A stretch of 64,000 bases of DNA, from positions 1 through 64,000 of IMG/VR virus record IMGVR_UViG_3300020048_000015. The stretch is one strand, 5' to 3'. The position numbers and the translations under genes were made by a program. Below are positions 26,174 through 64,000 of the stretch, piece by piece. A model generated the notes under the pieces. It worked only from the letters and a program-made list of their open reading frames with translations, was not told the DNA's origin and searched no databases. The DNA comes from a virus. Positions within the stretch are counted from its first letter, which is position 1; every line of letters starts with the position of its first letter.

Positions 26174-26534
26174 TATGAAAACTAACACACACATAACGGA
26201 GATTGAAGACAACACAGTAAAGTTTACCATGCAGATGGCTTTGGAATCAGGGTGTAGATATAGTCATTGGCTCACATCCGAAATCCGCAGATCCCCAAGC
26301 GGAGAAATTTTAGAAATAACTAATATTAAGGGAGTAAATCTAAAAGTTGGAGAAGATTATATTATAGACAAAGGCTTTTCAACTTCTGGAACTGTTGTAT
26401 TAGTTAGGATATTAGGCAGGGTTTTTGGAATTGTTGGTAATGGAAGAGGTTATACTTGGGAAACATCGTTGTATAGACTAACACCAACAGTGGAAAATAA
26501 CAGAGAAAATCTAATAAGTAAATTATTGGACTAA
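26163..26534 (+). CDS. Hypothetical protein with C-terminal tag
   Basis: ORF 26121..26534; ends RENLISKLLD. Confidence 0.65.
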   Translation: MNINMKTNTHITEIEDNTVKFTMQMALESGCRYSHWLTSEIRRSPSGEILEITNIKGVNLKVGEDYIIDKGFSTSGTVVLVRILGRVFGIVGNGRGYTWETSLYRLTPTVENNRENLISKLLD

Positions 26535-59451: not shown

Positions 59452-60032
59452 AATATTTAAAATTATTTGAAAATTTTAATCAATCAGAAATTGATTATAT
59501 TTGTAGAAAATATAACATTCAAAAATATACAATAAATCTTGATGGATCTATTGATGTAGATGGTCATGTTAATTTATACAAAAAACAATTAACTGATATC
59601 CCCCTTAAATTTAATAAAGTTTCTGGTTTTTTTGATTGTTCTGGTAACAACTTAACAAATTTAATTGGGTGTCCAAATTATGTTGGTGATTTTTTTAATT
59701 GTGCAAATAATCAATTAACAAGTTTAATAGGCTGCCCAACAGAAATTTGGCAAGGTTTTGATTTTGGATTCAATAAATTGACCAATTTAGAAGGTGTTGC
59801 TAAAATTATTAATAAACATACATGGTATAGTGATAATCCAATAACACCAATAATAGATTTATTTGGATATGATGTTAAAAAATATTTAGAATATCAAGAA
59901 ACATATAATTTTTTAAGAAAGGATTGTAAGATTGTTAAACACTTATTAATAGAAGCATTGGAAGATTTCAATACAGAATATAAAGATAATGTTGAACTAC
60001 CAGAAGAAATAGAAGGATATACTTATATATGA
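59448..60032 (+). CDS. N-tagged LRR-like protein, type B (3 repeats)
   Basis: MKYLKLFENF + head + repeats + type B tail. Confidence 0.9.
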   Translation: MKYLKLFENFNQSEIDYICRKYNIQKYTINLDGSIDVDGHVNLYKKQLTDIPLKFNKVSGFFDCSGNNLTNLIGCPNYVGDFFNCANNQLTSLIGCPTEIWQGFDFGFNKLTNLEGVAKIINKHTWYSDNPITPIIDLFGYDVKKYLEYQETYNFLRKDCKIVKHLLIEALEDFNTEYKDNVELPEEIEGYTYI

Positions 60033-60736
60033 AACACTTAAAACTATTTGAAAACTTTAATAAATCTGAAATTGATGATATTTGTAAAAAATATGGAATA
60101 AGAAACTATATAATAAATCCTGATGGGTCTATTGATGTTGATGGTGATATTAATTTAGTTAATATAAATCTAATTAAATTACCACTTAAATTTAATATAG
60201 TTTCTGGGGAGTTTGATTGTCGTGGTAACAAATTAACTTCTTTAGAAGGTTGCCCTAAAGAAGTTGGTGGTGATTTTTCTTGTTATGCTAATCAATTAAC
60301 TAGTTTAGAAGGTTGCCCTAAAGAAGTTGGAGGTTATTTTGATTGTGCAAATAATCAATTAACCAGTTTAATAGGTTGCCCTAAAGAAGTTGGTGGTTAT
60401 TTTAGTTGCACTACTAATCAATTGACATCTTTAGAAGGTGGTCCAAGTAAAGTTGGTGGAAGTTTTTATTGTCAGCGTAATAAATTAATCAGTTTAGATG
60501 GACATCCAGAAGAAATTGGTAGTTCTCGTTGGTATTATAATAATCCAATTTCACCAATAATAGATTTATTTGATGATATTAAAATTTATTTAGAATATCA
60601 AGAAACATATAAATTTTTAAGAAAAGATTGTAAAATTGTTAAACACCTTTTAGATGATGCTTTAAAAGATTATAATGAATATTATAATAAAAATGTAGAA
60701 TTACCAAAAAAAATTAAAGGATTTTGGTTAACATAG
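60029..60736 (+). CDS. N-tagged LRR-like protein, type B (5 repeats)
   Basis: MKHLKLFENF + head + repeats + type B tail. Confidence 0.9.
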   Translation: MKHLKLFENFNKSEIDDICKKYGIRNYIINPDGSIDVDGDINLVNINLIKLPLKFNIVSGEFDCRGNKLTSLEGCPKEVGGDFSCYANQLTSLEGCPKEVGGYFDCANNQLTSLIGCPKEVGGYFSCTTNQLTSLEGGPSKVGGSFYCQRNKLISLDGHPEEIGSSRWYYNNPISPIIDLFDDIKIYLEYQETYKFLRKDCKIVKHLLDDALKDYNEYYNKNVELPKKIKGFWLT

Positions 60737-60776
60737 AACTATATACTTATATTTAAAAAAAAATAATAAAACTAAA

Positions 60777-61166
60777 ATGAAACACATTAAAAAATTTACA
60801 AATTTTATAAATGAAGACTTGGATCCAAATTGGAAATCATCTGATGAATTTGATACATCAATGACAAATGATACAGAAGAAGATGATGATATTATTGATG
60901 ATTTTAAAGATGAAGAATTAATTGATGATTTTGAAGATGATTATTATAATCACAAAGAAAATGATTTCGTATATGACTACGAAAAAAGAAAAAAACAACA
61001 TCAAGATTTTGATGATAATTATAGCTCACCTGATCTTGATTATGTAGATTTATATGGTGATGATGATTTTGATGATTACAATGATGATTTAGGATTTGGA
61101 TATGAAGAATTTCAAGATGACCCTGCTATAAATAGCAGAAAAGATAAACCAAACAAAAACTTTTAA
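60777..61166 (+). CDS. N-tagged, highly acidic low-complexity protein
   Basis: MKHIKKFTNFINE; Asp-rich. Confidence 0.75.
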   Translation: MKHIKKFTNFINEDLDPNWKSSDEFDTSMTNDTEEDDDIIDDFKDEELIDDFEDDYYNHKENDFVYDYEKRKKQHQDFDDNYSSPDLDYVDLYGDDDFDDYNDDLGFGYEEFQDDPAINSRKDKPNKNF

Positions 61167-61194
61167 TTATTTTTTCATAAAATAAATAAAACCA

Positions 61195-61710
61195 ATGAAT
61201 AAATTTAATATTGTAACTAATCTACAAATAAACTATAAGTTTAAAACAAGTAGCCACTTTATTGTTAATTTAGGATTAGCAATAACTAAACAAGATAAAG
61301 GTGGTAGAAAACTTAATGATTCTGATGAGTTTGCTTATTATTATAATTTAACATATGATTCAATTGCCCATTCACAAGGAAATATAGGCAATATAAATTT
61401 TTATTTAGATCTTAAAATTAAAGATAATACTATTATATTTTTCTATGAAAAAGAAAAATATACATATAAATATGATGAAATAATGATATTAGAAAATGGT
61501 ATTGATTTTTATTTAGGACACTTGATTAAATTGACCGAAATTGCACATAATGATAAGATTGAATTGAAAATTGAACCTAAATCAATTACTAAAAAAGAAG
61601 AACAAATGATAATAAACCTTTTAAATAAAGGCAAATTATCATTTGAAGAAATTGCAGATGTTGTTGAAGTTGATTTAGAATATATTACTAAACTTTCAAA
61701 GACTTTATAG
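61195..61710 (+). CDS. Hypothetical protein with a C-terminal HTH-like segment
   Basis: LSFEEIADVVEVDLEYI. Confidence 0.65.
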   Translation: MNKFNIVTNLQINYKFKTSSHFIVNLGLAITKQDKGGRKLNDSDEFAYYYNLTYDSIAHSQGNIGNINFYLDLKIKDNTIIFFYEKEKYTYKYDEIMILENGIDFYLGHLIKLTEIAHNDKIELKIEPKSITKKEEQMIINLLNKGKLSFEEIADVVEVDLEYITKLSKTL

Positions 61711-61935
61711 GAAAGCAGATAGTAATGAAAAAATATATATTTTTTCGTATTCTTCCAAATCATCATAATCAAATTCTACATCCAAATCACCAATAAAGTT
61801 ATGTAATATAATAGAATTATCTTCTTTTACATATTCAATTGAATGAATATATAGAAATCCTAAATCTATTTCTACATATAATTCATTCAATCCAATACCC
61901 AAGATTTTTATTATATTTATAAGTTCTTCTTTCAT
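61705..61935 (-). CDS. Hypothetical protein
   Basis: ORF. Confidence 0.6.
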   Translation of the reverse strand: MKEELINIIKILGIGLNELYVEIDLGFLYIHSIEYVKEDNSIILHNFIGDLDVEFDYDDLEEYEKIYIFSLLSAFL

Positions 61936-61983
61936 ATATCTATATATTTAGATTAATATATAATAAAAATATTTATAGCTAAA

Positions 61984-62976
61984 ATGATTTTAAAATACAA
62001 AGATTATCTATTAGAATCTTTATTATTAGAAAGTGAATTAATTCTATCTGATGATTTCATTGATTTATTAAAATCAATGAAATCTAGTAAAATAAGAGAT
62101 TTTCTACTAATAAATTTAAGTAAAAATGATAAGCAATTAAGTTTATTTACAAATGATCTTAATTTAAAATATAATTATTTAGATATATCAAAAACAAATA
62201 ATGATGAAGTAACATTCACATTAGATAAAAAAGCAAAGGAAATAACTGGTGATATATGGGATTCAAATAGAAATCCAATTAAAATAGGAAGAGTTATAAA
62301 TTCTATAATAAAATCTAATGATCTTAATATTTCACCAAAAGAAATTGAAGATTTCATAAATCTATATAAATCATCCATTGATAAGAAAAATAATCAATTT
62401 TACTATTTTGATATAGTAAAAGGCGAAGATATTAAAGCATACTATAAAAAAGAAAACTACAAAGAAGTAAAAGGTGAAACAAATTTGATAAAATCTTGTA
62501 TGAATGAAATGGATAGCAATATATTCAATATGTATTCAAATAATCCAGATGTATGTAGCTTAGTTATATTATATAGTGATGATGATAGAGATATAATAAA
62601 AGGTCGTGCATTACTATGGAAGACCACATCAAGAGAAATGGTTTTAGATAGAATCTATACACATTATGATTCTGATATTAAACTATTTCAAGAATATGCT
62701 GAACAAAATAATTGGTTTTATAAAGAAACACCAAAAGGAACTATTAGATTTATATTAAATGGTGATTTAAAAACTAAAATTTTCCAAGTAGAAGTAGAAG
62801 GTAGTTATAACTATTATCCATATCTCGACACATTTAAATATTATAATGGCGCTTATAGATTTCTAACCAATAGAGAACCTAGAGCAAGTGATTATGAAAA
62901 TGAAGAGGAATTTCTTGATGAAGAATGGATTTGCTTAGATAGTGATGAGGGTGAATTTTCTGAAGTTTATATTTAA
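61984..62976 (+). CDS. N-tagged hypothetical protein
   Basis: MILKYKDYLLES; KIGRVIN...SCM...GRALLW...DRIY. Confidence 0.75.
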   Translation: MILKYKDYLLESLLLESELILSDDFIDLLKSMKSSKIRDFLLINLSKNDKQLSLFTNDLNLKYNYLDISKTNNDEVTFTLDKKAKEITGDIWDSNRNPIKIGRVINSIIKSNDLNISPKEIEDFINLYKSSIDKKNNQFYYFDIVKGEDIKAYYKKENYKEVKGETNLIKSCMNEMDSNIFNMYSNNPDVCSLVILYSDDDRDIIKGRALLWKTTSREMVLDRIYTHYDSDIKLFQEYAEQNNWFYKETPKGTIRFILNGDLKTKIFQVEVEGSYNYYPYLDTFKYYNGAYRFLTNREPRASDYENEEEFLDEEWICLDSDEGEFSEVYI

Positions 62977-63091
62977 ACTTTATCATTTAAAATTATATAA
63001 AAGTATATTGATTAATTAAAAATCTGACAATATGTCAGATTTTTAATTTGGTATAAAAATTGAAATTAATTAATTAAAAAAAAAACTTAAT

Positions 63092-63664
63092 ATGAGCAAA
63101 AGTAACAAAATTATTGGAATTGATCTTGGGTCATATAATTCGGCTGTTTCTATTTATGATGGAAACGAAGTTAAAATACTACCAAATTCGGAAGGTAGTC
63201 TAACCACTCCTTCTTATGTAGCATTCACCAAAGATGGAATTAAAGTAGGTGAAGCAGCAAAAAGACAAGCGGCTACAAATCCAGAAAAAACTATCTTTAA
63301 TATTAAACGATTAATGGGTAAAACATTTGATGAAGTAAAAAATATCAAAAGACCATATAAAATCGTAAATGCTGATGGTAGAGCTGCTATCCAAATTGAT
63401 GATAGAGTATATACACCCGAAGAAATATCCGCAATTATTATTCAGAAAATGAAAAAAACTGCTGAAGAATATTTGGGACAAGATGTTGAAAGAGCAATCA
63501 TTACAGTTCCTGCACACTTTAATTCAGAAGAAAGACAAGCTACTAAAATCGCTGGTGAAATCGCTGGTCTTAAAGTAGAACGTGTTATAGCAGAACCAAC
63601 AGCAGCTATTTTAAATGTAGATTCAAAATCTGAAAAGGTATATGCAGTCTATGATTTTGGTGGT
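63092..63664 (+). CDS. dnaK: Hsp70/DnaK, exon 1
   Basis: [30 protein letters not shown]; then TAA and intron core. Confidence 0.93.
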
Positions 63665-63976
63665 TAATTTTAGCCTCCAGTTTAAAAAAACCCATTAAAT
63701 TGCTGGAAAGTCTTTAGAGTCAACAATACTACAACGTAATTTGTAAAAATAAGCGTGAATGTTAAAAAATTGTTGAATTAGATAATCAGCAGCCAAGTGA
63801 CCATTAAAGTGGTTAAAGGTTCAACGACTACGAAAAGTAATCTAAGTCTTAAATGATATGATGAAATTCGCAAGAACAGTGGGAATGTTTCAACCACTAA
63901 GAAACATTAAGATATAGTCTGGGCTTATATGAAAGTATAAGAAGTTAAGATAAAGAGCTTAACGATAACAAAACCG
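63665..63976 (+). mobile_element. Group I intron (IA-like, 312 nt, no ORF)
   Basis: P AAATTGCTGGAAA 63697; Q AATCAGCAG 63784; R GTTCAACGACTA 63819; S AAGATATAGTC 63909; P3 CCCATT/AGTGGG; P7 GACTA/TAGTC; P9 GAAA loop; terminal G. Confidence 0.9.
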
Positions 63977-64000
63977 CAAACAATGGATCTATCAATTGTT
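63977..64000 (+). CDS. dnaK: DnaK exon 2 (runs off the window)
   Basis: In frame: QTMDLSIV, aligning to the Hsp70 GTFDVSIL motif. Confidence 0.75.

Follow-up and report, generated by a model that had tools for sequence, protein, structure and literature searches.

An ORF-less group I intron predicted in the dnaK gene of an uncultured huge phage

Results

The interrupted dnaK gene

The dnaK gene described here is very probably interrupted by an ORF-less group I intron of the phage IA type, which would be spliced out to restore a DnaK of 614 amino acids. The gene begins close to the end of the window, by which we mean the whole analysed stretch of 64,000 nucleotides, that is, the first 64 kb of a viral contig of 182,728 bp with 25% G+C. 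A sequence-only reading had placed a group I intron inside a phage dnaK gene, and our analysis supports that reading together with its proposed boundaries. The features of the gene, the intron and its relatives are compiled in Table 1. The analysis shows to which family the intron belongs, how it folds and covaries, where exactly its borders lie and that intron-less alleles exist; catalysis, splicing in infected cells and the history of the ORF we infer.

Exon 1 is 100% identical (191/191) to residues 1-191 of an uninterrupted DnaK, P0002. From 63977 onwards, exon 2 forms an open frame of 423 codons plus a stop (63977-65248), consists of Hsp70 sequence and matches residues 192-614 of P0002 at 418 of 423 positions. 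The sequence-only reading had the frame stopping right after DFGG and resuming as QTMDLSIV, and had named as a refuting outcome a downstream sequence that does not continue as Hsp70 in this frame; the exon 1 frame does end there, at the TAA, and the Hsp70 frame continues to contig position 65248. The intron is thus inserted directly after the GG codons of the DnaK motif D-x-G-G-(G/Q)-T, the ATP-binding glycine loop. Because the first codon of the intron is TAA, unspliced RNA would yield only a fragment of 191 amino acids.

The two halves could in principle be expressed as separate polypeptides without splicing, exon 2 being translated from the Met two codons in, and in several assemblies gene callers do report one ORF of 191 aa and another of 421 aa. 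We regard this arrangement as very improbable, as the break lies inside the phosphate-binding loop of a single domain, a full group I ribozyme sequence stands between the halves, and uninterrupted alleles correspond exactly to the joined sequence. In annotation, the two ORFs should be joined into one 614-aa DnaK, which is the product expected from an intron that is spliced out.

Inverted repeats followed by T-runs flank dnaK closely, one ahead of its start region (window 63020-63047) and the other behind its stop codon (contig 65258-65290, beyond the window), so that dnaK looks like a single transcription unit. A scan for consensus terminators found nothing inside dnaK or the intron, and the flanking inverted repeats were not called either. 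In this DnaK clade, Gln or Cys takes the place of the third glycine in the phosphate-binding loop D-x-G-G-G-T (DFGGQT, DFGGCT; window 63977-63979). Across 240 related loci, the loop reads GGGT in 219, GGCT in three and GGQT in two, with no match in 16. At window 63119-63139, the protein has DLGSYNS where most DnaKs have DLGTTNS; the loci named for the loop and DLGSYNS variants of the clade are L096, L098, L102, L176 and L179.

Table 1 Features of the interrupted dnaK gene, of its intron and of related loci. Positions are those of the window unless a locus is named.
Feature	Position	Strand	Details and basis
dnaK exon 1	63092..63664	+	191 codons, N-terminal part of nucleotide-binding domain, ends DFGG; ORF list
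P1, 5'-exon strand (two Gly codons)	63659..63664	+	pairs with 63673-63678; Rfam alignment and MFE fold
Group I intron, 312 nt, ORF-less	63665..63976	+	RF00028 match; precisely absent from intron-less alleles
In-frame TAA stop	63665..63667	+	first three intron bases; read from sequence
Internal guide sequence (P1 3' strand)	63673..63678	+	G63673 wobble with U63664
P3, 5' strand	63691..63696	+	pairs with 63878-63883; MFE fold
P4-P5 domain	63701..63791	+	P4 63701-06/63786-91; P5 63710-13/63780-83
P5a	63721-27/63769-75	+	peripheral extension at 63728-63768
P6 and P6a	63792..63820	+	P6 63792-94/63818-20; P6a 63798-804/63809-815; MFE fold, covariation
P7, 5' strand	63826..63830	+	pairs with 63915-63919, five Watson-Crick pairs
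P7.1/P7.2-type extension	63831..63877	+	47 nt between P7 and P3'; closing helix 63831-34/63867-70; Rfam insertion
P3, 3' strand	63878..63883	+	MFE fold, covariation
P8 hairpin	63884..63908	+	8 bp, 63884-63891/63901-63908, 9-nt loop
J8/7 and P7 3' strand	63909..63919	+	J8/7 63909-14, P7 3' strand 63915-19; invariant core block in all relatives
P9.0, 5' side	63922-23	+	pairs with 63974-75
P9	63924-30/63935-41	+	GAAA loop
P9.1	63944-49/63958-63	+	Rfam alignment, MFE fold, covariation
P9.0 3' side and terminal G	63974..63976	+	P9.0 63974-75, terminal G63976; 3' splice site after 63976
dnaK exon 2, start	63977..64000	+	QTMDLSIV...; runs past window to contig 65248
P8-loop ORF family	L226 1311-2432; L332 2086-3192 (-); L308 7411-8529; L263 3619-4725; L280 3492-4664		369-391 aa
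First-site (DxGG) dnaK loci	L263, L270, L273, L280, L288, L307, L308, L226/L314, L316, L332, L356, L358		
Second-site dnaK loci	L272, L276, L278, L320, L349, L354, probably L293		30 codons downstream, after ...LGG, before EDFD

The phage and its record

The phage comes from an aquatic or marine habitat, and none of the sequencing runs on record as containing this stretch is an RNA run. The proteins of the dnaK exons (P0122 and P0125 in cluster look-ups) are also placed on a contig of 353,919 bp, so that the phage has a genome of at least 354 kb, of which the 182,728-bp record covers a part; CheckV rates the record 84% complete. It encodes a C5 DNA methylase, both subunits of a type II topoisomerase, a DNA polymerase, a Clp/Lon-like ATPase, a lysin domain and a weak T4 gp23-like fragment, and no RNR gene was found in this fragment. 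Among deposited phages, the top DnaK matches (59-63% identity) belong to the uncultured huge phages LR756502, LR745206 and LR756501, with genomes of 634-735 kb and uninterrupted dnaK genes.

Fold and class of the intron

A covariance-model search, which the sequence-only reading had proposed as a check, matched a 451-base query to the Rfam family RF00028 (Intron_gpI) at 65.7 bits (gathering cut-off 50 bits; E 1.4e-16), with the alignment extending over the whole model (positions 1-253 of 253). With longer queries, namely Rfam on 4 kb (window 60000-64000) and RF00028 on the whole 182-kb record, no match was returned, though the intron is present in both. The speed filters of Infernal lose this 65.7-bit intron in 4-kb or whole-record searches, and not in 451 bases; its composition is borderline for them. 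Intron counts in A+T-rich huge phages that derive from default scans are probably too low. The 182-kb record may itself hold further introns missed by such scans.

The minimum free energy (MFE) fold obtained with ViennaRNA independently gives P1, P3, P4, P5, P5a, P6, P6a, P8, P9 and P9.1, with a z-score of -2.69, and none of 100 shuffled sequences folds as well. The P7/P3 pseudoknot lies outside what the folding tools model. P7 holds the guanosine-binding site in group I introns; here its strands are fully complementary and invariant in all 18 relatives, and hence show no covariation. P1, P3, P7, P8, P9 with its GAAA loop, P9.1, P9.0 and the terminal G63976 were all recovered where the sequence-only reading had put them.

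P1 is formed by five of six possible pairs, with a U63664-G63673 wobble at the 5' splice site and one U-U mismatch. Wherever P1 was checked in dnaK and RNR relatives, including those that carry ORFs, the same mismatch was present, and the design of P1, in which the 5' exon and the guide meet in a U-G wobble, is the same in all 13 interrupted dnaK loci inspected. P2 is absent: only 12 A-rich bases (63679-63690) separate P1 from P3, and the Rfam alignment deletes P2. In contrast, the related intron of locus L226 has a P2 hairpin.

Compensatory double changes were found in 27 of 47 predicted pairs when 18 family members, chosen through a shared motif, were aligned with MAFFT and evaluated with RNAalifold. 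With the exception of a single P6a pair, every predicted pair of P3, P5a and P6a covaries in these sequences, and each pair of P5a is backed by 5-9 compensatory sequences. All six pairs of P3 covary both in this alignment and in a three-way comparison of close relatives. The latter comparison comprises 62 pairs in 12 helices, of which 28 changed on both sides with pairing kept and three contain a non-canonical cell, a count that leans towards structure because the helices were placed by eye. The helix closing the P7.1/P7.2-type extension also covaries among the three relatives. The core blocks J6/7-P7 and J8/7-P7' are identical to those of 17 relatives.

In the Michel-Westhof classification, subgroup IA is defined by the extra P7.1/P7.2 elements between P7 and P3' together with P9.1. 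Judged by its predicted helices, the window intron is of the phage IA type (IA2-like), with a P7.1/P7.2-type extension and P9.1 and without P2.

Splice sites and intron-less alleles

The 3' splice site had been doubted in the sequence-only reading, as splicing there produces GGQT instead of GGGT. The site is nevertheless correct according to uninterrupted relatives and a metagenome contig. P0002, an uninterrupted DnaK of 614 amino acids (191 + 423) with 99% identity, shows that the exons join without gap or overlap. Uninterrupted DnaKs at 99%, 76%, 74% and 70% identity read DFGGQT, so GGQT is native to this DnaK clade; three other uninterrupted relatives read DFGGCT. The terminal G63976 aligns with the terminal G of the RNR and dnaK relatives. 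Owing to the missing P2 and the weak P10, the 3' site rests on this comparative evidence, on P9.0 and on the terminal G. P10 amounts to at most three A-U pairs (63668-71 with 63978-80) that are not conserved in relatives, and was not relied on. Alternative in-frame 3' sites after G63949, G63955 and G63964 were rejected; they would add 4-9 residues that are found in no relative.

One contig of the marine run X3 joins 63660 to 63977 via four replacement letters, with F-G-G-Q-T kept. This contig carries GGA GGA in place of GGT GGT, and because of these two synonymous differences it represents another allele and not a spliced copy. A second X3 contig (record 19) and a 1,994-base contig of run X2 (record 10) each span the whole intron with zero differences. 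Together, the X2 and X3 contigs establish that the intron is real DNA, that its borders are exact and that intron-plus and intron-minus alleles coexist. Its presence is sporadic, with both allele types found at 99% protein identity and within one run.

The De Bruijn contigs that break at the intron borders in X3 could also be explained if an intron-like repeat had been set into dnaK by a faulty or chimeric assembly. We give this explanation almost no credence, since the contigs from two studies cover the intron and both flanks without a difference, the same arrangement is present on the 353,919-bp contig, and unrelated assemblies have homologous introns at this very site.

Decay of the element deserves more weight, even if it is unlikely. 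The intron would then be a relic, descended from a group I intron and no longer splicing, and this dnaK copy a pseudogene split in two. Such a fate would suit an element without endonuclease ORF and P2, with a weak P10 and a mismatch in P1, and the intron-less alleles in the same population mean that the interrupted allele could be a dead end. However, all core helices are intact, the core blocks are those of the 17 relatives, and the P1 mismatch recurs in the relatives checked, ORF-carrying ones among them. Both exons are open and match the uninterrupted allele almost residue for residue (191/191 and 418/423). Moreover, at least three runs, belonging to two studies, contain the interrupted allele, whose contig depth in X3 is above that of the intron-less contig.

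Distribution of dnaK introns

We compared 240 related dnaK loci taken from IMG/VR and metagenomes; L226 alone is interrupted at this site, and the other 239 are not. The L226 intron, of 1,457 nt, lies at the same codon boundary (DCGG/GTHD), is 91% identical to the window intron in its 3' third and contains a 373-aa ORF in the P8 loop. A search with the exon 1 protein returned at least 14 clusters of N-terminal DnaK pieces with 58-85% identity. Of 14 such clusters, nine end exactly at the GG codons, and five continue for 5-7 residues to Ala-Ser, which is translated guide sequence. For the contigs of P0002, P0003, P0013, P0047 and P0106, interruption is read from the protein ends only.

The J8/7-P7-P9 block matched at least 108 stretches in IMG/VR. 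Of these, at least 19 belong to loci with an interrupted dnaK, 12 at the site of the window intron (first site) and seven at a second site (Table 1). Two pairs of first-site loci have near-identical exons and differ only by the ORF, namely L307 (320 nt) with L308 (1,452 nt), and L316 (324 nt) with L314 (1,457 nt). In bacterial and archaeal genomes, the block matched 38 times, and only one match adjoins a dnaK exon, on a contig of 1,320 bp binned with a Bacteroidetes MAG. Four interrupted dnaK genes, those of L270, L280, L307 and L308, reside on short IMG/VR contigs with the label GVMAG (giant-virus MAGs). Either the dnaK intron is present in nucleocytoviruses as well, or these contigs are DNA of huge phages that was binned with giant viruses.

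The literature that we searched, with incomplete coverage, nowhere names dnaK or Hsp70 as the host of a group I intron. The sequence-only reading had considered a chaperone host unusual, which holds insofar as no published case was found; in sequence data such introns are not rare, as many uncultured viral contigs have them.

Intron-encoded ORFs and relationships within the family

The ORF list contains no plus-strand ORF of 30 or more amino acids inside 63665-63976. In the 182-kb record, which is a fragment, no homologue of the intron ORF of the relatives was found, and nhmmer searches with the intron or a three-sequence profile detected no other member of the intron family. The J8/7-P7 decamer recurs at 26256, where it does not mark an intron.

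In a tree of 20 intron cores, the window intron is sister to the L332 intron with a support of 98/96. L332 is interrupted at the same site, its DnaK also reads DFGG/QT, and its intron carries an ORF of 368 amino acids in P8. The ORFs of five first-site introns constitute one family, with 29-37% identity to the L226 ORF, and all five contain invariant D...E-x-K residues and two CxxC pairs. No Pfam family matched them above cut-off; the weak matches are all PD-(D/E)XK nucleases. In an AlphaFold model of the P8 ORF, the C-terminal domain is predicted with confidence, and its best PDB match in Foldseek is I-Bth0305I (3r3p; probability 0.98, E 0.07, 13% identity). TnsA is also near this domain in the PDB; the E-values are non-significant. 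The P8 ORFs are probably an undescribed family of PD-(D/E)XK homing endonucleases.

Given the PD-(D/E)XK-like ORF of its closest relative at the same site, the window intron most likely descends from a homing intron, or is the partner of one, and either lost the ORF or never received it. We would place it at the ORF-less stage of a homing intron, a placement drawn from the family and not from this copy. The cargo differs by site: it is PD-(D/E)XK-like at the first dnaK site and GIY-YIG at the second, where the intron measures about 1,146 nt and its ORF matches PF19835 at 31.4 bits; neither the RNR intron inspected, that of LR756504, nor the window intron carries any.

All dnaK and RNR relatives have the 5'-exon hexamer GG(T/A)GGT in common, and the first dnaK, the second dnaK and the RNR site (...GGG) share only these six exon bases, which pair with the guide. 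The three kinds of intron group together with weak support (84/88), the tree does not resolve the order within this group, and the AU test does not reject a single clade of first-site introns (p 0.22); neither result demonstrates intron hopping. In the dnaK gene of the window phage itself, the hexamer of the second site is present (contig 64055-64060, outside the window), and the site is empty. Tentatively, and with some doubt, one may imagine that a ribozyme sub-family colonised new genes by guide matching, through reverse splicing, and that endonucleases were captured separately thereafter. The shared hexamer fits equally well a trivial constraint, whereby a guide works only behind that hexamer.

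Proposed splicing pathway

In the pathway that we propose, dnaK would be transcribed as one pre-mRNA, in which the intron then folds. A free guanosine bound in P7 would attack after U63664, which is held by the U-G wobble in P1. The 3'-OH of the freed exon would in turn attack after the terminal G63976, and the exons would be joined as GGU/CAA, giving a translatable message for the 614-aa DnaK (...DFGGQTMDLS...). Given the weak P10 and the absent P2, the intron might require high salt or the help of a protein to be active in vitro, which is a guess on our part.

Discussion

With dnaK, a chaperone gene, invaded at the heart of its ATP-binding loop, is added to the host genes of phage group I introns. 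When huge phages are annotated automatically, such a gene comes out as two "partial DnaK" ORFs and the intron goes unnoticed; Rfam-based scans failed here unless given less than 0.5 kb. The matched set of intron-less, ORF-less and ORF-carrying alleles at one site provides material for the study of homing, ORF loss and ectopic spread. The same use can be made of the sister introns at two other sites, where only the six guide-pairing exon bases are common.

That conserved phage genes can contain group I introns is textbook knowledge. The window intron is well folded, belongs to a family that is common in phages and resembles, in its DNA, introns of Staphylococcus, Bacillus, Lactococcus and Listeria phages. 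The introns of T4 td, nrdB and nrdD (sunY) and of orf142 in the Staphylococcus phage Twort are of subgroup IA2. Like these, the window intron is borne by a phage, interrupts a conserved gene for a protein where the motif is itself highly conserved, and has the common core including the J8/7-P7 block, a P7.1/P7.2-type extension and P9.1. An in-frame stop near the 5' splice site and a sporadic presence among close relatives are further shared traits. In contrast to the T4 and Twort introns, its host is a chaperone gene and not a gene of nucleotide metabolism, replication or structure, and it has neither P2 nor an ORF.

The class I RNR intron of the uncultured huge phage LR756504.1 (L006/L095) is 74% identical to the window intron over its whole length. 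Both introns have the same helices with compensatory changes, lack an ORF and P2, and share the 5'-exon hexamer, the type of guide and an aligned terminal G, whereas the host gene and the 3' exon differ. In L006 (1500-3300, corresponding to LR756504.1 at about 437.8-439.6 kb), two elements stand next to each other in the RNR gene: an intein-like insertion that keeps the frame and is accompanied by a separate HNH-type endonuclease ORF (phrog_681/559), and, a few codons on, the sister group I intron. The record is without annotation. The likeness to I-Bth0305I, the homing endonuclease of a Bacillus phage intron, is weak and concerns the P8 ORF of the relatives, an ORF that the window intron does not have.

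Short group I introns in huge-phage genomes were described in 2026 for the 'Jug' phages of the gut, in which 136 genomes contain 2,513 such introns (PMC12880540). Their hosts are terL, nrdD and DNA polymerase genes; splicing was confirmed by metatranscriptome reads for about half of the introns tested, and the phages have homing endonucleases that include PD-(D/E)XK types (PMC12880540). Neither dnaK, Hsp70 nor chaperone occurs in the text of that paper (PMC12880540). The window phage resembles the Jug phages in combining a huge-phage genome with a short group I intron; its intron measures 312 nt and comes from an aquatic or marine setting, compared with an average of about 206 nt in the gut phages (PMC12880540). 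Set against these systems, dnaK as a host and the hexamer GG(T/A)GGT shared across three sites are modestly new. As far as its sequence allows it to be read, the window intron would be ordinary in mechanism, and it is the host gene that is new.
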